Assembly (NCBI GenBank): GCA_963728045.1
Contig: CAVSIE010000003.1
Location: 2,231-66,230, forward strand
Reading direction: 5' to 3'
DNA length: 64,000 bases
Origin: an uncultured Solirubrobacterales bacterium
GTDB taxonomy: Bacteria > Actinomycetota > Thermoleophilia > Solirubrobacterales > 70-9
Within the stretch, counting starts at the first letter, position 1. Every line of letters starts with the position of its first letter. This document shows, one piece after another, positions 6,883 to 44,736 of the stretch. Made by a program: the position numbers and the translations under genes. The notes under the pieces are model-generated. The model was not told the DNA's origin. It was given only the letters and a program-made list of their open reading frames with translations, and did not search any database.

Positions 6883-7511
6883 GCATCCTCCTTTCGACGC
6901 GAGGAGCGTAACCCGGCGTCTTCGAGCACCGCCTCGACGAGCGCGTCGTAGCGACCATCCTCGAGGTCCCCGAGGGGATCGCGCGTGTACGCGAGCAGCT
7001 GGCCGTACGGAAGCGAGAACGCCGCGCGCATGGCGATCAGACGCTGCCGCTCCGGGCTCTCACGCTCGAGCAGCACCCGTTGCGCGGCGGTCAGCTGCCG
7101 TACCTGAGTCAGCCGCGAGGGGACCACGAGGAACACCAAAAGCGTCGCCGGGACGAAGAAGGTGGCGAGCCCGAGGATGTCCGCCAGCTGGTGCGTCTTG
7201 TCCACGCCGTCCTGGCCGAGCTCCGCCACGTTGCCACCGGAGCCTTCGCCCGCCCCGCGCAGCCCATCGGCAAGGTCGCCTCCGACGATCGGAGTGCCGT
7301 CGACGGCATCCGCGGCGGACTCGAATCCGTTCTGGATCGACGAGCCCGCCTCGTTCACTCCCTCGCCGAGCACGGCCAGGCGGTCGACCGCGTCGTGCAC
7401 CTTGAGCGCGACCCACGCGAACAGCACGAGGAGCGCGATGGTGAGGAGATCGCGCGCGAGCGTCGAAACCCGGCGCGTCGGAATGTTCGGATAGAAGCGC
7501 ATGATCCCCAC
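6879..7511 (-). CDS. Hypothetical membrane protein
   Basis: 210 aa with two clear hydrophobic segments. It is the first gene of a start/stop-overlapping gene string. Confidence 0.45.
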   Translation of the reverse strand: MGIMRFYPNIPTRRVSTLARDLLTIALLVLFAWVALKVHDAVDRLAVLGEGVNEAGSSIQNGFESAADAVDGTPIVGGDLADGLRGAGEGSGGNVAELGQDGVDKTHQLADILGLATFFVPATLLVFLVVPSRLTQVRQLTAAQRVLLERESPERQRLIAMRAAFSLPYGQLLAYTRDPLGDLEDGRYDALVEAVLEDAGLRSSRRKEDA

Positions 7512-7576
7512 TTACCCGGTTTGGTCTCGGACCTCTCGGGGCACAACCGGGTCAAGCGAGAAAGGAGGACCGATAA

Positions 7577-7654
7577 GTGAGCTTGCTCTACATCATCCTC
7601 ATCGTTGTCATCGTGCTCCTGCTGCTCGGCTTCTTCACGCGCGGGCGCTGGTAA
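7577..7654 (+). CDS. Small hydrophobic peptide (25 aa)
   Basis: GTG 7577 is preceded by AAAGGAGGA (7561-7569). It encodes VSLLYIILIVVIVLLLLGFFTRGRW* and is followed by a hairpin. It is below the ORF-track size cut-off. Confidence 0.4.
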   Translation: MSLLYIILIVVIVLLLLGFFTRGRW

Positions 7655-7684
7655 CAACTAGGACCTGGAAACACTCGAACTAGG

Positions 7685-7706
7685 CCGCCCGGCACTTGCC
7701 GGGCGG
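7685..7706 (+). terminator. Stem-loop downstream of the small peptide ORF
   Basis: CCGCCCGGC-ACTT-GCCGGGCGG forms a 9-bp GC stem with a 4-nt loop. The U-tract is weak. Confidence 0.35.
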
Positions 7707-7732
7707 TCTCATGGTCCGGCAGGGTTAGAGGA

Positions 7733-8518
7733 GTGTCCGGGGTCGCCGCCGCCACCGCATTCCTCACGCGGGCCGATAAGGCTTCGCTGCCGACGCTTGG
7801 CGGAATGGCGAGACCCGACGGAATCGTGATCGCAAGCGAACGCTTCTGGGCCTTTGCCCGCGCCGATGGGACCGTCTTCGAAGGCAAGATGCCTGCGGCT
7901 TCGACCGCCTTCCGCAGGATCCCGATCCTGCGCGGTATCGCTCGGCTGGGAGCGTCCATGTCGCCGCTCTTCCGCGGCGGAGGTGTCGCCGGCAAGCGCG
8001 AGAAGCTCTTTCTCACCGCGGCGCTACTCGCGCCGTGCGTGTTCGTGTTCTTCTCCGAGACCGCGACCCTGATCGCCGGGATCGTGCTCAGCGTGGCTCT
8101 ACTCGCCTGGCTCCTGCGCGGACGCACGCTCTACCTGCACGGGGCCGAGCACCGCGCGATCGCGGCCGCCGAGCAGGGAACCCTGGCGGCGACCTGGCGA
8201 GGTGACGCGCGGCCGTCTCGGTTCTCGCTGCGCTGCGGCTCGAACTTCGTCGCGCTCGTCTTGCCGGTCGGCCTCGTCGCCGACCAGTTCTGGCCGTTCG
8301 CGCCGGCAATCTGGACGCCTGTCGTCGTCGCGCTGCTGACGATCGGCGTCTCGATGGAGATCTGGCGCGTCGTCCAGGGAACGACTTGGTCGAGCATCAA
8401 AGGCCTGCTGCTGCCGGGTCTCGCGCTCCAGCGCCTGACGACGCGCGAGCCACGCCTGGAGGAGACCCGGATCGCGCTCACCGCGGTCGCGTCAGTCCTC
8501 CGGCGCGAACTGGCCTAG
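7733..8518 (+). CDS. DUF1385-family membrane protein
   Basis: N-terminal GGMARPDGIVIAS and the conserved LHGAEHRAIAA motif (YHGAEHK-like), followed by TM segments. Confidence 0.65.
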   Translation: MSGVAAATAFLTRADKASLPTLGGMARPDGIVIASERFWAFARADGTVFEGKMPAASTAFRRIPILRGIARLGASMSPLFRGGGVAGKREKLFLTAALLAPCVFVFFSETATLIAGIVLSVALLAWLLRGRTLYLHGAEHRAIAAAEQGTLAATWRGDARPSRFSLRCGSNFVALVLPVGLVADQFWPFAPAIWTPVVVALLTIGVSMEIWRVVQGTTWSSIKGLLLPGLALQRLTTREPRLEETRIALTAVASVLRRELA

Positions 8519-8552
8519 CAAACTCGTCCTCCGCATCGGCGACGATCTGCCG

Positions 8553-9803
8553 ATGATCCGCGGTCTCTGGCCTGAGCTCCGCAATGGCCCACTGGGCCGG
8601 CGCGACTTCCGGTTCCTCTTCCTGGGCCGGACGACATCGTTCATCGGCAACGCGTTCGCCAACGTGGCGCTCGCCTTCGCGGTCCTCGAGTTGACCGGCT
8701 CCAAAGCGGACCTCGGCTACGTGCTCGCCGCGCGAACGGTGCCACAGGTGATCTTCCTTCTCGTCGGCGGAATCTGGTCGGATCGCCTGCCGCGGAATCT
8801 CGTGATGGTGACCGCGAACGTCGTCAGCGGCCTCAGCCAGGGCGCGATCGCGGTGCTCCTCCTCGCGGGCCACGCGCAGATTTGGCACCTGATGGCACTC
8901 GGCGCCGTCAACGGCATGAGCTCGGCGTTCTTCTTCCCGGCCGCATCCGGCATCGTCCCCCAGACCGTCCCGACGCGCATGCTGCAAAGCGCGAACGCGC
9001 TCCTTCGACTCGGAACGAGCGGAAGCTGGATCGTCGGCGCCGCGCTCGGCGGTCTCATCGTGGCCGCCACGAGCCCGGGTGTTGCGATCGCGGTCGACGC
9101 AGCCACCTTCCTGCTCGCGGCGCTCTTCACGGCGATGATCCGCCTTCCGTCCGAACTGAAGATGGAAGCCTCGAACTTCTTCGCCGAGCTGGGCGAGGGC
9201 TGGCGGGAGTTCCGCGCTCGGACGTGGCTGTGGGTGATCGTCCTCCAGTTCAGCTTCGTCAACGCGATCGAGCAGGGCTCCCAGAGCGTCCTTGGTCCGG
9301 CGATCGCCAAGGATCACTTCGGCGGAGCGGCCGGCTGGGGCCTGATCCTGACGGCCCAGTCCCTGGGCCTCGTTGCAGGCGGACTGATCCTCCTCCGCCT
9401 CCGCCCGCGCCGCATTCTGCTCGCCGCGACACTCGGCTTCCTGCTGACGATCCCGTTCCTGTTGGCTCTGGCAGGCCCCCTGCCGCTGGCGGCGGTCGTC
9501 GCCCTGGCGGCGCTGGCCGGGATCGGCCTGGAGGTCTTCGGCGTCTTGTGGGACACGGCCATGCAGCAGGAGATCCCGGCGGAGAAGCTCTCGCGGGTCT
9601 ATTCCTACGACGCGCTGGGCTCATTCGCGCTGATTCCGCTCGGCCTCGCCGTTGCCGGCCCTATCTCGGAGGTTTTCGGGACGCGACCGACGATCCTGGG
9701 CGCGGCCGCGATCAGCACGACCGTGACGCTCGCCGTTCTCTTAGTCCGCGACGTGCGCACGCTCCCGCGTCGTGAGTCCACGCCTCTCCTCGAGCCCTCC
9801 TAG
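8553..9803 (+). CDS. MFS transporter
   Basis: 416 aa with about 12 hydrophobic segments and an N-terminal RDFRFLFLGRTTSFIGN pattern. Confidence 0.8.
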   Translation: MIRGLWPELRNGPLGRRDFRFLFLGRTTSFIGNAFANVALAFAVLELTGSKADLGYVLAARTVPQVIFLLVGGIWSDRLPRNLVMVTANVVSGLSQGAIAVLLLAGHAQIWHLMALGAVNGMSSAFFFPAASGIVPQTVPTRMLQSANALLRLGTSGSWIVGAALGGLIVAATSPGVAIAVDAATFLLAALFTAMIRLPSELKMEASNFFAELGEGWREFRARTWLWVIVLQFSFVNAIEQGSQSVLGPAIAKDHFGGAAGWGLILTAQSLGLVAGGLILLRLRPRRILLAATLGFLLTIPFLLALAGPLPLAAVVALAALAGIGLEVFGVLWDTAMQQEIPAEKLSRVYSYDALGSFALIPLGLAVAGPISEVFGTRPTILGAAAISTTVTLAVLLVRDVRTLPRRESTPLLEPS

Positions 9804-10869
9804 GAGCCACCAGCCCGCGAGCGGCGCCGCGGCAAAGACCGCGAAACCCGTGCGCCACGACGATGCGTCGACGAGCGCGGCAAACAGCGGCGCTGCGACG
9901 AAGCCGACGATCGAGAGCGTCATCTGCTGAAAGCCGATGGCGGCGCCGCTTCGCGAGCGTCCGGCCAGCTCGGCGGCCGCCGTGTACGAGAGGCCGTTCC
10001 ACATCATCGAGAAGGCCGTCGCCACGACCAGCGTCGGGATGAGAATCTCGAGCGGAACCGTGACGAGCGCCGCCGAGAGTGCGAGCGTGGCGAAGATCGC
10101 CAGCCCGACGAGCCGCAAGGGGCGGATGCGCGCGCGTGCGCGGTCCGACCAGCGGCCGACGCCGATCCGCAACGCGATCGCGATCACCTGCGCTACGGCG
10201 AGCACGGCGGCGGCCTCACCGGTCGAGAGCCCGCGCGCGTCGTGGAGGAAGAGGACGAGGAACCCGGTCAGCGCGATCTGGGCGACCAGAAACAGGCTGC
10301 TGCCGGTGCTCAGGCAGCCAGAGACGCCGGTCGCGAAGCGTCCACGGCTCGAGCTCCTCGGCGGTTACGGTCGCCGGCCGATCGCGGACGACGAGCGCCG
10401 AGACCAGCGCCGCCACCAGGCAGAGCACCGCGAGGAAGAGCAGCGCCCCGTGCAGAGAGCTCGCCCCGACGATCGCCGGCAGCGTCACGGCCGTCAGCGC
10501 GCCGCCGAGCGGTAGCGACGCCTGGCGCAGCCCGAGCGCGAACCCGCGCTCCTCCGCGGGGAACGAGTGCATGACCGCGCGCCCGCTCGCGGAGTTGACG
10601 CTCGACCCGGCTGCGCTCGCGAGGCCGAGCAACCCGACGAACGCGTAGAAGTCGTCAACGGCGGCCGCGGCACCGACCAAAAGGCCCATGGCAGTCAGAC
10701 CGACAGCGAGAGCCAGCCGCTCTCCCCACCGGTCGGCCGCCAGCCCCCAGGGGAGCAGCGTGAAGATCGGCCCGACCCAGACGCTGGCGAGGACGATGCC
10801 CACCTCCGTGAGCGTGAGGTCGAACTCCTCGCGGAGGATCGGGGCCAAAACGGGCAGGCCGAGCAACAC
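9741..10869 (-). pseudogene. MFS transporter, frameshifted (about 10312-10316) and apparently truncated at the N-terminus
   Basis: Two ORFs (10216-10869 and 9741-10205) are the two halves of one MFS protein. The bridging sequence LSTGSSLFLVAQIALTGFLVLFLHDARGLSTGEAAAVLAVAQVI reads in the downstream frame. An in-frame stop lies just upstream of GTG 10869, where a first TM helix would be expected. Confidence 0.6.
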
Positions 10870-10883
10870 GGTGCGCCAGCCTC

Positions 10884-11486
10884 GGCTTCAAGCCCAAGCT
10901 CTCCTTCCGCCTCTATGGCGGCACGAAGAGGGGAGGTCACCCGAGGCTGAAAGCGATGGTCCGCATGCCCGCAGGAGGCGCCAACATCGCCAAAGCCGCC
11001 GTGGCGCTGCCGAGATCCGAGTTCCTCGACCAGAGCCACATCGGCACCGTCTGCACCAGGGTCCAGTTCAAAGAAGACGCTTGCCCTGCAGCCTCGGTCT
11101 ACGGCAAAGCCTCGGTGAAGACCCCGCTTCTGGATGAAGTACTGAGCGGACCGATCTACCTGCGCTCTTCCGACAATCTGCTCCCCGATCTCGTCGTCGC
11201 CTTCCGGGGAGGCAGGGTCGACTTCAACCTCGTAGGCCGCATCGACTCGATCAGGGGAGGGATCCGCAACACCTTCGACTTCGTTCCCGACGCCCCAGTG
11301 ACCTGGGCCTCCTTCGACTTCCTCGGCGGCAAGAAGGGCCTGCTGATCAACAGCAGAGATCTCTGCAAAAAGACCTACAGGGCAACGGCCAAATTCAGGG
11401 CCCAGAACGGCGAGGCGCTCACCTTGCGTCCGGAGATGCAGAACAGCTGCGGCAAGGTGCGCAAAGCCAAGAAGCGTCGCCACTAG
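10884..11486 (+). pseudogene. C-terminal fragment of a larger extracellular protein (5-prime truncated)
   Basis: GFKPKLSFRLYGGTKRGGHPRLKAMVRMP...GPIYLRSSDNLLPDLVV...GGKKGLLINSRDLC...RKAKKRRH reads like the tail of a large protein. The frame has a stop at 10815-10817 and no credible N-terminus. Confidence 0.45.
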
Positions 11487-29044: not shown

Positions 29045-29118
29045 CGGGGCGTGGCGCAGCCTGGTAGCGCGCACCGTTCGGGTCGGTGAGGTCCCCGGTT
29101 CAAATCCGGGCGCCCCGA
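29045..29118 (+). tRNA. tRNA-Pro (anticodon CGG)
   Basis: Full 74-nt cloverleaf traced by hand: acceptor CGGGGCG/CGCCCCG, D stem GCGC/GCGC, anticodon stem CACCG/CGGTG with loop TTCGGGT, T arm CCCGG-TTCAAAT-CCGGG. No encoded CCA. Confidence 0.9.
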
Positions 29119-38412: not shown

Positions 38413-39651
38413 ATGAACGCAACGAGTGCCGAGGTCGCGAGCCCGCTCGCGCACCTCTCGGCGGAGCAGCTCGACGAGCTTGCCCGCGAGCTCGACGAGA
38501 TCCGCGACCGGACGTTCGCCGACCTCGGCGAACGCGACCGCCGCTACATCGAGAGCATGATCGCGATGCAGCGCCGCCTGGCGGTGATGGGGCGCGTGCT
38601 GCTGCTCGGCGCGCGCTACCGCCCCGCCAAGGTCGCCGGCGCCGCCGCGCTCTCGATGGCGAAGATCCTCGAGAACATGGAGATCGGGCACAACGTCCTG
38701 CACGGGCAGTGGGACTGGATGAACGACCCCCAGATCAACTCCTCCACCTGGGACTGGGACACCGCCTCGACCGCGGAGGCGTGGAAGCACTCGCACAACT
38801 ACGTGCACCACACCTTCACCAACATCCTCGGCAAGGACAAGGACCTCGGCTACGAGATCATGCGGATCGACCCGCAGCAGAAGTGGCGCCCCGTCTACCT
38901 CCTGCAGCCGCTCTACAACCTCCTGCTGGCGGCGTTCTTCGAGTGGGGCGTGGCGGTCCACGACCTCGACTTCGAGGCGATCCGGACGGGCCGCAAGTCC
39001 AAGGCGCAGATCAAGCGCGAGCTCGCCGGCATCCGCGAGAAGGCGAAGAACCAGGTAGTCAAGGACTACATCGCCTGGCCGCTGCTGAGCGGCTTGGCGA
39101 TGGCGGCCCTGGACGCCGGTCTCGAGGTTCGTAGTGGCGGCGGGCGGCGACGGGGCGGCCTGGCAGGGGTCCTAAAGCGGGCTCTTCGTGGCGGGGGGCG
39201 CTCCTACCGCGCGGCGGCGTCGGCAAACGCGACCGCGAACATCGCCCGCAACGTTTGGGCCTACGCGATCATCTTCTGCGGCCACTTCCCAGACCAGACC
39301 CACACCTTCAGGCCCGAGGAGGTCGAGGACGAGAGTCGTGGCGGCTGGTACGTGCGCCAGCTGACCGGGGCGGCGAACATCGAGGGCAGCCCGCTCTTCC
39401 ACGTCGCCAGCGGCAACCTCGGCTACCAGGTCGAGCACCATCTCTTCCCGGACCTGCCGAGCACCCGCTATGCGGAGATCGCGCCCCAGGTCAAGCAAGT
39501 CTGCGAGCGCTACGGGCTTCCGTACAACAGCGGCCCCTTCGGCCAACAGCTGGGGATGGTGCAGCGGACGATCCTGCGACTCGCCTTCCCGGGAGGCGCG
39601 CCGCGGCCGAAGCCCGGCCCCTACCGTGGGGAGGACCACCCGGCTCTGTGA
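38413..39651 (+). CDS. Membrane fatty-acid (acyl-CoA) desaturase, DesA3-like
   Basis: Three histidine boxes are present: HNVLH, HNYVHH and QVEHHLFP. Confidence 0.85.
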   Translation: MNATSAEVASPLAHLSAEQLDELARELDEIRDRTFADLGERDRRYIESMIAMQRRLAVMGRVLLLGARYRPAKVAGAAALSMAKILENMEIGHNVLHGQWDWMNDPQINSSTWDWDTASTAEAWKHSHNYVHHTFTNILGKDKDLGYEIMRIDPQQKWRPVYLLQPLYNLLLAAFFEWGVAVHDLDFEAIRTGRKSKAQIKRELAGIREKAKNQVVKDYIAWPLLSGLAMAALDAGLEVRSGGGRRRGGLAGVLKRALRGGGRSYRAAASANATANIARNVWAYAIIFCGHFPDQTHTFRPEEVEDESRGGWYVRQLTGAANIEGSPLFHVASGNLGYQVEHHLFPDLPSTRYAEIAPQVKQVCERYGLPYNSGPFGQQLGMVQRTILRLAFPGGAPRPKPGPYRGEDHPAL

Positions 39652-39662
39652 TATCGCTCACA
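39647..39662 (+). repeat. Direct repeat, left copy (TGTGATATCGCTCACA)
   Basis: Identical to 44720-44735. It contains the desaturase stop codon and has the form TGTGA-N6-TCACA. Confidence 0.9.
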
Positions 39663-39790
39663 TATATCCCTTCTCTGTAGAAGCGGAATCCATCCCTGAT
39701 CGGCCCTAGCTTCCTGCCTCGTCCAGATCAAAACGGCCGGGGCGCCGCGCTAACGGCCCCCGGCCTGGCACCGAAAGGCGGAACCTTCCG

Positions 39791-40036
39791 ATGCAGGCCA
39801 ACCTTAGTCCGCGCTGCGAGCGCGAGGATGAAGCGGTTCAGCGCGCCGTTCTCAGTCTCGTCCTCGCTGCGCATCCAGAGTCCCTGACGATCCCCGAACT
39901 TGCCGCCGAGATAGATGAAGGGGACACCGCAGAGCGCGCCGTGGTCGCTCTCGTCGGCGTCGGCTTGCTCGACTGCGGTGGCATCTCTGTCCAGCCCAGC
40001 GCCGCTGCTATCCGCTTCGACCAGCTCGGCGTATGA
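39791..40036 (+). CDS. Small hypothetical protein (possible winged helix)
   Basis: 81 aa. Its stop overlaps the next start as ATGA. LTIPELAAEIDEGDTAERAVVALVGVGLL is wHTH-like. Confidence 0.4.
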   Translation: MQANLSPRCEREDEAVQRAVLSLVLAAHPESLTIPELAAEIDEGDTAERAVVALVGVGLLDCGGISVQPSAAAIRFDQLGV

Positions 40037-40293
40037 CTGTCGCGGAGCGGTTCGGCGCGAACCTTCGCGACTGCCGGAAGCGAGTCGGCCTATCTCAGGA
40101 AGAGACCGCCGTGCGCGCCTCGCTGCATCGCACCGCCGTCGGGCAAATCGAGCGGGCCGAACGGGTCTGCCGCATAGACACCCTTGTGAAGCTCGCCGGG
40201 GCGCTGGAGGTTGAACCCGGCGAGCTGCTCACCCGCCTCGAATGGGAGCCGGGCGAGATGCGGGCGGGCTCCTTCAAGGAGGCACCAGCGTGA
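40033..40293 (+). CDS. XRE-family HTH protein
   Basis: LSQEETAVRASLHRTAVGQIERAERVCRIDTLVKLAGAL. Confidence 0.7.
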   Translation: MTVAERFGANLRDCRKRVGLSQEETAVRASLHRTAVGQIERAERVCRIDTLVKLAGALEVEPGELLTRLEWEPGEMRAGSFKEAPA

Positions 40294-41057
40294 CCCGACG
40301 ACTGCTCGCGTACCCTGCTCCCAGAATGGCGTCGAGCGTTCTTCCCTCCAAGGAACGAGTCAATAAGGCGGGGCGAATGCTCGCCAGATGGCTAGACGGC
40401 GAGGTTGTGCTGTCCGACAACGAATTGCAGGAGTTAATCGTCCCGGTTCTTCAATGGCGGGCGCAGCACACCTATCCGATGTCGCTCGCGATGCCGAGCC
40501 TTCGAAAATGGGCGGAGCGATACTCGACCACCGACGTTCAGCCTTCTCAGCGCTTGAAGCGGCTGCCGCAGATCATCAACAAGCTTCAGCGCCATCCCGA
40601 CATGAAGCTTGCTCGCATGCAGGACATTGGAGGCGCTCGGGTCGTGCTTTCAAGCCGGGATGAGGTCGAAAAGATGCATCAACGCATTCGGCTGTATTGG
40701 GAGATCGAGCGCGTTAAGGACTGGCGAGAGGAGGGCCGGCCAGACACCGGCTACCGAGCGCTGCACCTCATGGTGCCGAAGCGGGACGATCTCAGCGGCG
40801 AGGAGCGGATCATCGAGCTTCAGCTTCGAACAAAAACTGAGCACCGCTGGTCGCAGGTCATCATGGCCACCGGGGAGCGCCTCGGCTACTCTCTGAGAGA
40901 TGGATATGGACCGCCTGACTTGTTGCTCTACTTCAAGCTGGCGGCAGAGATCCTTGCCATCCGGGATACAGGGGCCGAGCCGGAGAGGGATCTCCGGAAA
41001 CGCTTCATCGCCGCTCGTCGGGAGGCGAGTCCCTACTTCGTGTCGAAAGAAGGCTAG
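40290..41057 (+). CDS. RelA/SpoT-domain small alarmone synthetase-like protein (toxSAS candidate)
   Basis: All four synthetase motifs are visible: RLKRLPQIINKLQR, MQDIGGARVV, GYRALHLMV and ELQLRTKTEHRWSQV. GTG 40290 overlaps the XRE stop as GTGA. ATG 40326 is an alternative start. Confidence 0.75.
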   Translation: MTRRLLAYPAPRMASSVLPSKERVNKAGRMLARWLDGEVVLSDNELQELIVPVLQWRAQHTYPMSLAMPSLRKWAERYSTTDVQPSQRLKRLPQIINKLQRHPDMKLARMQDIGGARVVLSSRDEVEKMHQRIRLYWEIERVKDWREEGRPDTGYRALHLMVPKRDDLSGEERIIELQLRTKTEHRWSQVIMATGERLGYSLRDGYGPPDLLLYFKLAAEILAIRDTGAEPERDLRKRFIAARREASPYFVSKEG

Positions 41058-41059
41058 CG

Positions 41060-41308
41060 ATGCCAGACCACCAATTTCTGCTGATTTACAACGCAAAGAC
41101 CCAGCGTCTGATCGACGCAAAGGATCTCGGTAGCGATACGCCGTTGGCTGTTGAGGCCTACGCAGAATGCGAGCGGCGCTACAGCGGCAATCAGGACATC
41201 GAGGTTCTTCTGATCGGCTCGGACTCACTCGACACGATCAAGAAGACCCATGGCCACTATTTCGGGAATGTCGATCCAGTTGAGTTCTTCCGGTCAGTCA
41301 CGGTCTAA
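41060..41308 (+). CDS. Small acidic protein, candidate cognate antitoxin/immunity partner
   Basis: The 82-aa ORF starts 2 nt after the RSH stop. No recognised domain. Confidence 0.45.
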   Translation: MPDHQFLLIYNAKTQRLIDAKDLGSDTPLAVEAYAECERRYSGNQDIEVLLIGSDSLDTIKKTHGHYFGNVDPVEFFRSVTV

Positions 41309-41373
41309 GCAGAAGACGGCCAAAGGGCTTGAGATTCCGGTCCCGACCAAAGGCGACTTCGATGACGCCCTGT

Positions 41374-41580
41374 CTAAGGTCGCTCCGCCAGCAAGTCGTA
41401 AACGCCCTGGCGAGAAAGATCGGCCTCAGAAGCGATCTGGGTGATCGAGACTCCCGCCTTCTGCGCTTGCTGACAGAAGCCCCGTAGGTCTTCGGTCGCC
41501 TGTCGCTTGGCGGCATCGGCCCTCTCGCGCCGCTTGGCAGCGCCGCGGATGCTTCGCAGGATGCTGGCCTGCTCGCTCAT
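41374..41580 (-). CDS. Small HTH protein coupled to the transposase
   Basis: ATG 41580 overlaps the transposase stop as ATGA. GVSITQIASEADLSRQGVYDLL is an HTH. Confidence 0.5.
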   Translation of the reverse strand: MSEQASILRSIRGAAKRRERADAAKRQATEDLRGFCQQAQKAGVSITQIASEADLSRQGVYDLLAERP

Positions 41581-42521
41581 CGGCCAGCCGCCGTATCGAG
41601 CAACGAGTGGAACATCGACCGCTCGCCCCGGAATCGTTCGTTGTAGCGCCAGGCGTACTCGTCTAGATAGGACTGAAGCCACTTCTGGGAGACCTTCTTG
41701 TAGGTGCCTCGCATCCCGGTCTTGAGGTTGCCGAAGAAGCCCTCGATCGTGTTCGTATGAACGTCTCCGCGCACGTAGAGGCCAGCGGAGTGATTGATGA
41801 CGCTATGGCCCGCGTATTCGCGCCCGACCGGCCTGTAGGGCCGCCAGTCGTCCGTGAAGAGGATCGAGTCCGGGTTGACGTTGGCCCGCACGGCTCCACT
41901 TAGCGGCTCACCTCGGCGCGATTTGATGATTCGCAGCTTGACCCGCCCGCCTCGCTCGACCATGCCGAGAACCGAGACCTGACGCTCGCGCCACTGAGCG
42001 GCTTCGGTCTGAGTCATCTTCGGCCCACGGGGGCGGCCATGCACACCGGTCTCGTCTACCTCGACCTTGCCCCTCAGCGGTCGGGCATCGTCTTTCATCA
42101 GCTCGTTGCGAATCTTGTTGAACATGCGCCAGGCGGTCTTGTAATGGACTCCAAGCTCCCGCTCTAGCTGCTTGGCAGATATGCCGCAGCGAGTGCTTGT
42201 CATCAAGTACATCGCGTGAAACCAGAGCCGCAGCGAAGTCGATGACTTGGCGAAGATCGTCCCCGCCGTGGGATGAACGTGGTGTCCGCAGCCGGTGCAA
42301 GTCCAAGACTGGCGGCCCTGCTTGGTCGCGTAGCGCTTGAAGACGCGCTCTGAGCCGCACTTGGGGCAATGGGCGTGTTCCCCGTCGCGGGAGTAGCGGG
42401 TGCGCCACAGATGCTCCAGGCAGGCGGCATCATCGGGGAACTCAGCCAGAAACTCGGTGACCGAGTAGTCCGAGGTCGAAGACTTGGCTCGACGCGGTTG
42501 GTGGCGATTGGCGGGCGGCAC
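41577..42521 (-). CDS. IS1595-family (ISXO2-like) DDE transposase
   Basis: N-terminal zinc ribbon CPKCGS...CTGCGH, then GISAKQLERELGVHYKTAWRMFNKIR and the VEVDETGVHG... DDE core. Confidence 0.85.
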   Translation of the reverse strand: MPPANRHQPRRAKSSTSDYSVTEFLAEFPDDAACLEHLWRTRYSRDGEHAHCPKCGSERVFKRYATKQGRQSWTCTGCGHHVHPTAGTIFAKSSTSLRLWFHAMYLMTSTRCGISAKQLERELGVHYKTAWRMFNKIRNELMKDDARPLRGKVEVDETGVHGRPRGPKMTQTEAAQWRERQVSVLGMVERGGRVKLRIIKSRRGEPLSGAVRANVNPDSILFTDDWRPYRPVGREYAGHSVINHSAGLYVRGDVHTNTIEGFFGNLKTGMRGTYKKVSQKWLQSYLDEYAWRYNERFRGERSMFHSLLDTAAGR

Positions 42522-42523
42522 GG

Positions 42524-42567
42524 TGTCAAGCTACTTGACATCAAGACGTTTGTCAAGCCGCTTGACA
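42524..42567. promoter_or_regulatory. Two 17-bp palindromes TGTCAAG-N3-CTTGACA upstream of the transposase
   Basis: Located at 42524-42540 and 42551-42567. Each half is a TTGACA -35-like hexamer. Confidence 0.5.
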
Positions 42568-42729
42568 GTCCAAGCGCTCGAACTCCATTCGAGACGCTTC
42601 CGAACGCGTGTTTGCAGCGCAAACGCTTCAGGCCCATAGCCGCCCCTGGATTGGCTATGCTCTTGAAAGCTCATCCGCCTTAGGCGGAAGGAGTTCTAGG
42701 AGCCGTCTCGAAAGGGGCGGCTCCGGTCT

Positions 42730-43221
42730 TTAGAGAGAGAACGGACCTGCGGCGACGTAATCGCGCTGAAGCTTTTCCCGCTGCCTGCTGCTTGGGCAGA
42801 ATGCCGTAACGAGCATGGCGTAAGGGTCCTCCCGCTTCCTGCGAATCCTCAAGATCACGAGGAACTCAAAGGTGGGCAAAGCCACGGCAATGCTGTTACC
42901 CCCCTTGCTGGCAGGCCGCTCTTGCTCCCAGCACAGGACACGCTCGCTGCCGCAGGCAGAAATCATGGGTCCGATCCAAGGAACTCGCTCGCACCTTCTT
43001 AGATCTGGATTGCGGTCCTCGCTCGAACGGTCTACCTGCTCTGAGATCACATGCCAGAAGCCGTCTGGCTTGCCCTTGACTACAGGCATTTTGCGGCGCC
43101 CAACATTCAGGCCAAAGAAGGACGCCTGGCGAAGGTCGCTCTCAAAGCATCGGTAGAGAGCATCGCAATAGTCATCCCAGTCGCCGTCCAGCGACACCAC
43201 CTCGGGAAGCCAATCGGTCAA
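42730..43221 (-). CDS. Hypothetical 163-aa protein coupled to the DUF3800 gene
   Basis: Its start overlaps the DUF3800 stop by 4 nt. No domain recognised. A hairpin lies just downstream at about 42695-42725. Confidence 0.55.
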   Translation of the reverse strand: MTDWLPEVVSLDGDWDDYCDALYRCFESDLRQASFFGLNVGRRKMPVVKGKPDGFWHVISEQVDRSSEDRNPDLRRCERVPWIGPMISACGSERVLCWEQERPASKGGNSIAVALPTFEFLVILRIRRKREDPYAMLVTAFCPSSRQREKLQRDYVAAGPFSL

Positions 43222-43952
43222 GCATCCACTCCTGGCCGGCCATGCCAGTGGAACAGGTTGAACTTTGCCTCCGTTTTGGCGGTGTTGAACTTGAAGCGCG
43301 CGCCGGAGCGAGCTTCGATCCGCCGAGCGATGGCCCGCTTGGCTTGGCTGCTTCCTCCGTCGCGGTTGCCGTGGGAAACGGCTCCGAGAAGAATGTCGGC
43401 AAGCTGGATGGCTTGGACTTCATGCGAGCGAACGGTTTGGACCCGCTTCACCGTCTCGCCGCTGAAGTCATGCAGGCCCGAACGAAGGATCTCCTCAAGC
43501 TTGCGGACCTTCGGGCCGCCTTGGGTGTCCTTGATATCGAGGTAGATACGGAACTCCTCATCTCGGCTTAGGAGCTGGGAGAGGAGCAGGTAATACATCT
43601 TGTAATACCACTCGTCGTGAGTCTGGGAAAAAGCGCTGTGGTCGAGTGACGTCTTGTCTGCAATAACCGCTCGAAAGCGAAGATCCGTCGTGTCGAAGAA
43701 GAAGTCGACCAGAGCCTCGTAGAGCGGCAGCCACTTCGGGGAAGCCTTGCCCCACTTGACCTCCGCCTGGGCCGGGATGCCGGCGGCCTGCTTGATTTCG
43801 CCGATTCGAGCAGCGATCTCGCGCGCTTGACCTGCGGGGACCACAAGAGCACCGAGAACCATGATCGGCTGCCCGTCCGTGGGAAGGTGGCAACTCTCGT
43901 CGCAAAAAATGCTGAATGCAGGCGTCAATGTGCGAGCAACTGTATCCAGCAC
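43218..43952 (-). CDS. DUF3800-domain protein
   Basis: N-terminal IFCDES acidic motif and C-terminal HEVQAIQLADILLGAV motif, both characteristic of DUF3800. Confidence 0.65.
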   Translation of the reverse strand: MLDTVARTLTPAFSIFCDESCHLPTDGQPIMVLGALVVPAGQAREIAARIGEIKQAAGIPAQAEVKWGKASPKWLPLYEALVDFFFDTTDLRFRAVIADKTSLDHSAFSQTHDEWYYKMYYLLLSQLLSRDEEFRIYLDIKDTQGGPKVRKLEEILRSGLHDFSGETVKRVQTVRSHEVQAIQLADILLGAVSHGNRDGGSSQAKRAIARRIEARSGARFKFNTAKTEAKFNLFHWHGRPGVDA

Positions 43953-43979
43953 TGCGCTTTGAATATCCGGAAGTACCCT

Positions 43980-44594
43980 ATGTGCGCTTTGAGCAGAGCA
44001 GGGCCAGCTAAGCAGTCGGCAGAAGCGACGGCGGTCTATCGGGCCATTGGCCGCTACACGGTCGCGTTCTCCTACCTCGTCTCTGAAATGCGCGCCGGAA
44101 TCGAAACCCGCTTCGATTCTGACTCAGAGATCGCGCAACTTGCCCTAGGCGAGGCTTTCGCGTCGCAGATCACCAACGCATTCTTCGCGATCTGCGAATA
44201 CTCGGTGGAACTGGATGACGAAGAGCGGCAGGTAGCTATTCGCCTCAAGAAAGAAGTCAATGACGCCATCAAGGAGCGCAACGACATCGCCCATGGCGAC
44301 TGGCACGTCCGTTCGTGGCGAAAGCCGGAGCCTCACATGGTCCGGACTAAGCCCGGCCGAAGAGCTGGGGCAGTCGTAGAAAAGGCGCTGCCGGTTGACG
44401 AACTTGAAGAGCTTTCGGACGCGCTCGAAGACCTGGCTGAGACTGTCATCGAGTTTGCCCTTCTCTGCTTTGCCATTCATCCCCACGCAGACAACATCGA
44501 GGGCGAGGTCCGGGTCAGGGACGTTTACCGCTTCCGGAATCACCGGGTTGTGAGAGAGGGACGCTACGCCGCTTCCCACCCCTGGGACGACTAG
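43980..44594 (+). CDS. HEPN-like protein (Rx4H motif)
   Basis: KERNDIAHGDW contains R-x4-H in a predicted helical context. The start is uncertain because only 27 bp separate it from the divergent DUF3800 start. Confidence 0.5.
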   Translation: MCALSRAGPAKQSAEATAVYRAIGRYTVAFSYLVSEMRAGIETRFDSDSEIAQLALGEAFASQITNAFFAICEYSVELDDEERQVAIRLKKEVNDAIKERNDIAHGDWHVRSWRKPEPHMVRTKPGRRAGAVVEKALPVDELEELSDALEDLAETVIEFALLCFAIHPHADNIEGEVRVRDVYRFRNHRVVREGRYAASHPWDD

Positions 44595-44719
44595 CCGGGG
44601 CTTTTCCTCCCGCTCCCAATCCGCCTCGATCTCAGCTTCTGCCTCGGCCTGTTCTAGCCAGGTTTCATCGTCTTCGGGCTCCAAAGCGCGGTCCTCAGCT
44701 TCTACAGAGAAGGGATATA

Positions 44720-44735
44720 TGTGATATCGCTCACA
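44720..44735 (+). repeat. Direct repeat, right copy (TGTGATATCGCTCACA)
   Basis: Identical to 39647-39662 and immediately follows the right IR. Confidence 0.9.
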
Positions 44736-44736
44736 T

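Follow-up and report, generated by a model that had tools for sequence, protein, structure and literature searches.

A phage P1 rlfA-rlfB-type gene pair, PADLOC candidate PDC-M04, carried by an IS1595-family cargo transposon in a Solirubrobacterales genome

Two overlapping genes, here called A and B, lie on the minus strand of a 64,000-nucleotide stretch of DNA from an uncultured Solirubrobacterales bacterium (assembly GCA_963728045.1, contig CAVSIE010000003.1, positions 2,231 to 66,230; hereafter the window). They are a member of the RlfA-RlfB family, known as rlfA-rlfB in phage P1 and as rapA-rapB in phage P7, and correspond to the PADLOC candidate PDC-M04. The pair is an obligate, co-inherited unit and travels here as cargo of an IS1595-family transposon. 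The pair most probably functions in immunity or exclusion by targeting nucleic acids; A would act as a nuclease effector and B as its obligate partner. What is new is the occurrence of a family copy on a transposon in a high-GC, actinobacterial-type genome; the family itself was already catalogued.

Gene B (positions 42730 to 43221) encodes a 163-residue protein and starts at a TTG codon that overlaps the TGA stop codon of gene A by four nucleotides (TTGA, 43218 to 43221). An AGGAG Shine-Dalgarno-like sequence lies within A, 7 nt 5' of this TTG, and the TTG start is kept in the closest relative of the locus, a contig of a Solirubrobacterales metagenome-assembled genome (L081). The maximal open reading frame (ORF) of A spans positions 43218 to 43952 and comprises 244 residues from a GTG codon at 43952; as the more than 3,400 A homologues are almost all about 236 residues long and the nearest of them starts where a TTG lies at 43928, that TTG, giving a protein of 236 residues, is the likely start. 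Ratios of non-synonymous to synonymous substitution rates (dN/dS) of 0.14 for A and 0.09 for B, calculated against L081, reveal purifying selection and therefore identify both as real, constrained genes rather than chance ORFs. The pair is a translationally coupled two-gene module. A preliminary description of this DNA, made from its sequence, had placed both minus-strand ORFs and their 4-nt overlap correctly, and the motifs that it quoted are all found (FCDES and QLADILLGAV in A; FWHVIS...DRNPDLRRCERVPWIGPMI and FLVILRIRRKREDPYAMLVTAFC in B). Its claim that the pair has its own hairpin terminator is only partly confirmed: two GC-rich hairpins (42699 to 42724 and 42675 to 42687, minus strand, together 42675 to 42724) do lie just 3' of the B stop codon, in a region with a minimum free energy of -37 kcal/mol and a folding z-score of -2.45, but they have no U-tract, and the terminator scan called no canonical intrinsic terminator after B.

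The family assignment rests on both proteins. Protein A matches the Pfam family DUF3800 (PF12686, E = 1.5e-13, 52.1 bits for a gathering cut-off of 21), B matches no Pfam family, and NCBIfam holds no family for either. In searches against PADLOC-DB v2, A matches the PDC-M04A model PDLC04353 (E = 9.2e-81, residues 12-238 on profile positions 4-228 of 232) and B matches 12 PDC-M04B models, the best being PDLC04357 (E = 2.2e-35, residues 1-156 on profile positions 1-154 of 162). The two component genes are adjacent and on the same, minus strand, as in the PDC-M04 layout. Sequence comparison with phage P1 leads to the same family, A being 40 % identical to RlfA over 229 residues (E = 2e-68, full length) and B 31 % identical to RlfB (NC_005856.1, 52444 to 52908) over 142 residues (E = 7e-22). 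The P1 proteins themselves score as PDC-M04A (RlfA, E = 1e-95) and PDC-M04B (RlfB, E = 1e-51). Among 50,697 phage records, a tblastn search with B retrieves P1- and P7-type phages only, at rlfB/rapB (31 % identity, 86 % coverage); B also hits about 100 P1-like plasmids. The preliminary description had presented the pair as undescribed, with the 163-residue protein without a family and PADLOC expected to find nothing. These statements have to be withdrawn: PADLOC models match both genes, B is a homologue of P1 RlfB and P7 RapB, and annotation of the pair in the P1 record goes back to the sequencing of that genome.

In PHROGs, the B family is phrog_16230 and is labelled 'replication protein'. 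The same words are the rlfB product name in the P1 RefSeq record, so that the PHROGs label was probably inherited from the positional annotation of P1. Labels of RlfB homologues vary: P1 RefSeq and PHROGs use 'replication protein', and E. coli plasmids in RefSeq, NZ_CP012497.1 among them, use 'oxidoreductase' or 'hypothetical protein'. In plasmid gene tables rlfB is often left uncalled, and no label is experimentally supported. The PDC-M04 entry originates from a 'guilt-by-embedding' screen, in which cassettes lying within BREX, DISARM and type I restriction-modification (RM) loci yielded 145 'phage defence candidates' (Payne et al. 2024, bioRxiv 10.1101/2024.01.29.577857). In the literature searched, PDC-M04 has no main-text mention and no reported phenotype.

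The association of A with B is essentially invariant across bacteria and their viruses. A scan of one genome per species gave 552 loci with relatives of A, and a scan of IMG/VR gave 193 viral contigs encoding A; 80 of each were kept for analysis. The 80 genomic loci span Pseudomonadota, Chloroflexota, Acidobacteriota, Planctomycetota, Cyanobacteria, Bacteroidales, Clostridia and others, and in 79 of them a B homologue starts between -67 and +7 nt from the A stop codon. Seventy-four genomic copies of B are full length (155-192 residues), a few are truncated, and one locus has no B. Among the viral loci, B lies downstream of A in 79 of 80, the exception running off the contig end. The 4-nt overlap seen in the window is the commonest junction (66 of 79 viral loci) and is also common in the genomic set. 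The association holds in the opposite direction, since a viral scan seeded with B found A immediately upstream in 14 of 14 loci. The preliminary description had treated the two genes as a pair, and these counts bear it out. The families are also of similar size, with 3,413 clusters for A and 4,385 for B at 90 % identity; at 50 % identity B still has 1,053 representatives, nearly all single-domain proteins of 155-185 residues. The distance matrices of A and B are correlated (Mantel r = 0.40, a value reached by none of 999 permutations). The two proteins differ in constraint, A being far more conserved (mean pairwise identity of 61 % across phyla) than B (40 %).

Protein A has the sequence signatures of the DUF3800 family. 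Its invariant residues are C17, D18, E19, S20 and H22, D139, K141, D142 and T143, S176 and H177, and Q183 and D186. They include the two DUF3800 signatures, the N-terminal D18-E19 pair and the C-terminal Q183-L-A-D186 motif, which are invariant in both family alignments and conform to the published DE and QxxD definition (PMC7736814). Three independent papers assign an RNase H-type fold to DUF3800, on the basis of RaptorX models with RNase H2 templates and of AlphaFold, and the literature links this nuclease to type VII retrons and to Cas12a2/a3 and VI-F loci (PMC7736814, PMC10910872, PMC12669027, PMC13594972). A profile search of the PDB chain sequences with A returned spurious matches only. 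A retron or non-coding RNA association was considered for the window pair and rejected: no reverse transcriptase is found among the ORFs of the island, and Rfam gives no match in the island (E <= 1) or in 12 related loci. Since the window also has no retron-type Rfam RNA, and neither this locus nor its relatives have a TPR domain or CRISPR array, A is best regarded as belonging to a distinct DUF3800 subfamily that is defined by its B partner.

Protein B was modelled with AlphaFold from a 140-sequence alignment, with a predicted local distance difference test (pLDDT) score of 94.1 and a predicted template-modelling (pTM) score of 0.89; this model replaced an earlier one based on 15 close sequences (pLDDT 73.5). 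The predicted structure is an alpha/beta protein: a long helix at the N terminus leads into a helix-hairpin-helix region at the centre, and a four-stranded sheet with a final helix makes up the C-terminal part. The near-invariant residues of the family (F55, W56, H57, R70, D73, R75, R76, E78, R79, W82 and W98) gather in the central region and are more suggestive of a site for binding or catalysis than of a passive antitoxin. A fold search of the PDB with this model yields nothing at E < 0.1, a profile search of the PDB chain sequences gives spurious matches only, and a fold search of BFVD retrieves a single protein, the B orthologue from a phage contig (TM-score 0.78). The best PDB match, which is not significant, is 7vd7_A (E = 0.11, probability 0.72, TM-scores 0.27 and 0.39, 72 aligned columns); the weak, partial matches include RelE/ParE/HigB-type toxins (7vd7_A, 9w3a and 6kml), all with TM-scores of at most 0.39. 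A RelE/ParE toxin fold for B is not supported, as no structural match is significant (E >= 0.1) and those obtained are partial.

These properties of B bear directly on the best-surviving alternative, that the pair is a toxin-antitoxin (TA) or addiction cassette in which A is a nuclease toxin neutralized by B and which stabilizes carrier elements and RM islands rather than sensing phage. Such a cassette would be in keeping with two small, translationally coupled genes found on phage-plasmids, prophages and a transposon, with the faster evolution of B, and with the presence of RelE/ParE/HigB-type toxins among its best structural matches. Those matches are, however, far from significance, the near-invariant His/Arg/Glu cluster of B would be less usual in an antitoxin than at an active or ligand-binding site, and neither protein has a recognizable DNA-binding autoregulatory domain. 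Knock-down of rlfB by CRISPR interference (CRISPRi) had no effect on P1 plating, in an assay that is blind to addiction. Phage P1 already has an addiction module of its own, phd/doc. We consider the TA explanation unlikely.

The genomic neighbourhoods of relatives are conflict-related. Where the nearest neighbours could be counted (74 upstream and 71 downstream), the gene immediately upstream encodes a type I specificity subunit (hsdS) in at least 16 of 74 cases and the gene immediately downstream a type I restriction subunit in 8 of 71. Individual scanning of loci shows the order hsdM-hsdS-A-B-hsdR on a single strand in L007 and L072, and hsdS-A-B-hsdR in L015 and L032, an additional gene separating B from hsdR in L032. 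DNA methyltransferases, GmrSD, AIPR, a TOTE primase-helicase, DrmD/BrxH-type helicases and both serine and tyrosine recombinases are found as further neighbours, and some neighbours are ordinary metabolic genes. Within the clade of the window pair itself, one contig carries a HicB gene before A-B, followed by a DUF87 (HerA-like) gene with SIR2 and, further on, a PIN gene, and on another A-B is followed by an Mrr_cat/NA-iREase1 gene. The preliminary description had placed the pair in a context typical of anti-phage systems, and defence genes are indeed typical neighbours of its relatives (type I RM subunits, GmrSD, SIR2 with a HerA-like gene, PIN, HicB and Mrr-type genes). Such surroundings are expected of a conflict system and do not fit a dedicated role in replication. 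As a separate observation, the HsdR downstream of A-B in L015 (Nitrospiraceae; 7363 to 11013) contains a DUF559 insert (PF04480, E = 2.5e-33) between its N-terminal nuclease and motor domains.

The phage P1 pair provides the biological context against which a replication role has to be weighed. In the P1 record, rlfA (annotated as DUF3800) and rlfB abut, with repL/oriL and a C1 operator immediately upstream of the pair; both are noted there as 'possibly associated with lytic replication', and a homologous Shewanella pair is noted as well. A genome-wide CRISPRi screen found both genes non-essential for P1, with efficiencies of plating of 1.3 for rlfA and 0.88 for rlfB (PMC10695390). P1-like phage-plasmids have eight variable accessory regions of low GC content; rlfA-rlfB-pmgF is among them, like res-mod, simABC and tciABC, and is sometimes deleted or replaced (PMC9603915, PMC6906374). 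In Escherichia coli, the P1-type cassette occurs in 121 of 5,426 complete genomes and is nearly always plasmid-borne. A replication-linked function, the processing of RNA primers or R-loops by an RNase H-like enzyme and its cofactor in lytic or mobile genetic element (MGE) replication, would account for the position of the P1 pair behind a C1-controlled operator, for its early co-induction with repL (reported in a preprint), for the RNase H-type fold of DUF3800 and for the PHROGs label of the B family. The P1 label is purely positional, however, and P1 does not require the genes, which P1-like plasmids have often lost or exchanged for others. Chromosomal copies form the majority, many of them in type I RM operons or beside other defence genes, with no replication genes nearby, and the window pair lies on an insertion element without a replicon. 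Taken together, this makes a replication role improbable.

An equally improbable explanation is counter-defence or competition between MGEs, the pair being expressed by an element to destroy or disarm host immunity or rival elements: the C1 operator and lytic-phase expression in P1 keep this explanation alive, and the presence of the pair on 193 viral contigs and of DUF3800 domains as accessory nucleases at Cas12a2/a3 and type VI-F loci agrees with it, but chromosomes of several phyla carry the pair stably inserted, on the same strand, between hsdS and hsdR, which is hard to square with anti-restriction, and searches of Pfam, PADLOC, PHROGs and NCBIfam gave no similarity to known anti-defence proteins.

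We therefore favour an RlfAB/PDC-M04 immunity or exclusion module as the most likely explanation of the pair. Observed here are its membership of the family, the pairing and co-inheritance of the two genes, the selection on them, their mobility and their context; the DUF3800 fold is taken from the literature, and activity against phages or other MGEs is a candidate phenotype. The cassette moves horizontally among type I RM operons, prophages and phage-plasmids, and in the window it lies on a cargo transposon of about 5 kb. Protein A would be the nuclease effector, with an RNase H fold and acidic motifs formed by the adjacent D-E pair, D139/D142 and Q183-x-x-D186. Protein B, which has an invariant His/Arg/Glu cluster, would bind nucleic acid or an infection signal and gate or target A.

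Several observations weigh against such a function. The C1 repressor operator upstream of rlfA and the induction of P1 rlfA/rlfB early in lytic growth together with repL (preprint) fit a function in the lytic phase, which is less usual for prophage defence genes. Protein A is unusually conserved, with its 61 % mean pairwise identity across phyla, and many copies of the pair have no recognizable defence neighbour. The fold and catalytic residues of A are transferred by analogy from the literature about other DUF3800 subfamilies. Finally, Payne et al. explicitly presented their PDCs as candidates before any phenotype test (bioRxiv 10.1101/2024.01.29.577857).

A bolder version of the immunity or exclusion hypothesis, to which we give slightly less than an even chance, is that RlfAB truly works as an immune or MGE-exclusion system and is very widespread, with B, a fold not seen before, as the infection sensor that licenses a nuclease of the RNase H fold; the P1 rlfAB genes would then be conflict genes. 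More speculatively, copies between hsdS and hsdR might serve as PrrC-like back-ups to type I restriction. If an immune role of RlfAB were established, a textbook phage would have two of its 'replication' genes reassigned, and a new nuclease-plus-partner architecture would be added. The window instance by itself adds little, since the family is already present in PADLOC and in the P1 annotation. The explicit link between PDC-M04 and P1 rlfAB, on the other hand, provides a fully tractable E. coli model for the candidate and makes the pair easy to test. It is also useful that the pairing is essentially obligatory, that B can be modelled confidently although it has no solved structural relative, and that the cassette has been caught moving as IS1595 cargo with other conflict genes.

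The carrier of the window pair is an IS1595-family cargo transposon that occupies positions 39647 to 44736. Its left end (39647 to 39687) consists of a perfect 17-nt direct repeat, TGTGATATCGCTCACAT (39647 to 39663), followed by the terminal inverted repeat ATATCCCTTCTCTGTAGAAGCGGA (39664 to 39687); at the right end (44695 to 44736), the terminal inverted repeat (44695 to 44718, one mismatch) is followed by the same 17-nt direct repeat (44720 to 44736). The transposase gene (41577 to 42521, minus strand) lies downstream of B and encodes an IS1595-family DDE transposase with an N-terminal zinc ribbon (DDE_Tnp_IS1595 PF12762, E = 5e-34; zinc ribbon PF12760, E = 6e-6; NF033547, E = 8e-57), under a dN/dS of 0.21 against L081. 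The preliminary description had located the pair in a mobile island between a transposase and a divergent HEPN-like gene, and both neighbours are confirmed, the latter having an RNDIAH motif. The GC content falls from about 0.70 outside the island to 0.56-0.62 inside it, between about 40.2 and 44.8 kb. The single Rfam match of the window at the gathering threshold, a tRNA gene (29045 to 29118), is about 10 kb from the island and does not adjoin it.

Comparison with L081 defines the mobile unit. As in the window, L081 carries a divergent gene of about 180 residues, A, B, an IS1595 transposase gene and a small ORF; the order A-B-transposase is also found in a second locus, L082. Window and L081 are 78.5 % identical at the DNA level over A, B and the transposase gene, and their homology stops at 39665 and 44717, that is, at the terminal inverted repeats (24-30 nt). 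The flanking genes differ, being desaturase and MarR-MFS genes in the window and CorA and MMPL genes in L081, and the element measures about 5.05 kb in the former and about 4.44 kb in the latter. As the homology ends at inverted repeats, the flanks differ and both copies are bordered by direct repeats, the element is a mobile IS1595-family unit. The direct repeats of the L081 element are a different 17-nt palindrome, GCGTGACGGCCCTCACG. Members of the IS1595 family normally generate a short (8-bp) target-site duplication; the direct repeats of both insertions are instead 16-17 nt long and palindromic (GTGA-N6-TCAC), which points either to a target duplication of unusual length or to palindromes of this kind being preferred as targets. 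In L081 (8401 to 8466 of that contig), immediately beyond the left end of the element, an extra solo right-end inverted repeat is separated from the true left-end inverted repeat by a spacer formed by the palindromic direct repeat, an arrangement that resembles a circle junction or the remnant of a neighbouring copy.

The other cargo genes differ in how well they are kept. The divergent HEPN-like gene (44088 to 44594, plus strand) belongs to a maximal ORF that opens at 43827, with a probable start at 44088 or 43980. Its product contains the Rx4H motif RNDIAH and has a sub-threshold Pfam match to HEPN_RiboL-PSP (E = 0.018); no PADLOC, PHROGs or NCBIfam family matches it. The 179-residue gene product encoded at the same position in L081, with the motif RNDFAH, is 52 % identical, and an uncatalogued HEPN family may therefore be travelling with the element. 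The gene was rejected as a general third component of the A-B system, being kept in this transposon lineage only and not seen in the broader neighbourhoods. The small HTH-like ORF (41374 to 41682, minus strand), which comes after the transposase gene and overlaps its 3' end, matches phrog_686 (helix-turn-helix DNA-binding protein, E = 5e-6) and probably encodes about 68 residues from an ATG at 41580, in which case it would overlap the transposase stop codon by 4 nt. Since L081 has a 74-residue gene at the same place, the transposase may be coupled to a small protein partner that binds DNA.

The remaining cargo is absent from the L081 element and is thus variable. It comprises, all on the plus strand, an HTH_3 regulator (40033 to 40293), a RelA/SpoT-like protein (40242 to 41057; PDC-S33, E = 8e-46; phrog_4773) and an ORF of 82 residues (41060 to 41308). 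The last begins 2 nt after the RelA/SpoT-like gene, in a different reading frame, and is matched by the C-terminal portion of the single-protein models that also hit the RelA/SpoT-like protein; the two are either a frameshifted gene or a split, TA-like version of a fused small alarmone synthetase.

The A-B pair can be compared with several characterized or catalogued systems. With type II TA modules of the RelE/ParE/HigB class it shares the arrangement of two small coupled genes on mobile DNA, and part of B resembles RelE/ParE-type toxins faintly and non-significantly. In contrast to these modules, the larger and more conserved protein of the pair is the putative enzyme, and an antitoxin-type DNA-binding domain is lacking.

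The prr locus has the gene order prrA-prrB-prrC-prrD. A sizeable fraction of A-B copies occupies the same slot as PrrC/RloC-type effectors, between hsdS and hsdR and on the same strand, which by analogy suggests a back-up nuclease that might be coupled to the RM complex. PrrC and RloC are nevertheless unrelated to A and B in sequence and domains, A-B having neither an ABC ATPase nor an anticodon-nuclease domain, and A-B is a two-protein system that is often found without any RM system.

The DUF3800 effectors of type VII retrons and the TPR-DUF3800 accessory proteins of Cas12a2, Cas12a3 and VI-F loci resemble A in belonging to PF12686 and in having the N-terminal D-E motif, and their DUF3800 domain is regarded as a nuclease of the RNase H fold that acts within an immune system. 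The retron-linked subfamily is without the Q of the QxxD motif, whereas A keeps the motif, and the partner of A is B in place of a reverse transcriptase, a non-coding RNA, a TPR domain or a CRISPR array.

The closest likenesses are with PDC-M04 and with P1 rlfA-rlfB. Both PDC-M04 profiles match the window proteins over their full length, with the genes adjacent on one strand, and the type I RM embedding that defines PDC-M04 was seen again among the relatives analysed here; the window copy departs from this definition in lying outside any RM, BREX or DISARM system. The P1 pair has the same gene order, with ORFs that abut or overlap, and both of its proteins are homologous to those of the window over their full length. 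The catalytic-looking motifs CDESCH, YLDIKDT and SHEV..QL.D of A and the block FWH...R.PDL.RC.R..WI of B are kept. The two pairs differ in setting: that of P1 adjoins repL/oriL behind a C1 operator on a phage-plasmid, and that of the window lies on an IS1595 transposon in a chromosome of about 70 % GC, where the island holds no repL-type gene or replicon and the neighbours are the transposase, HEPN-like and RelA/SpoT-like genes. As this is a difference of context and not of homology, it leaves the orthology of A and B with RlfA and RlfB intact.

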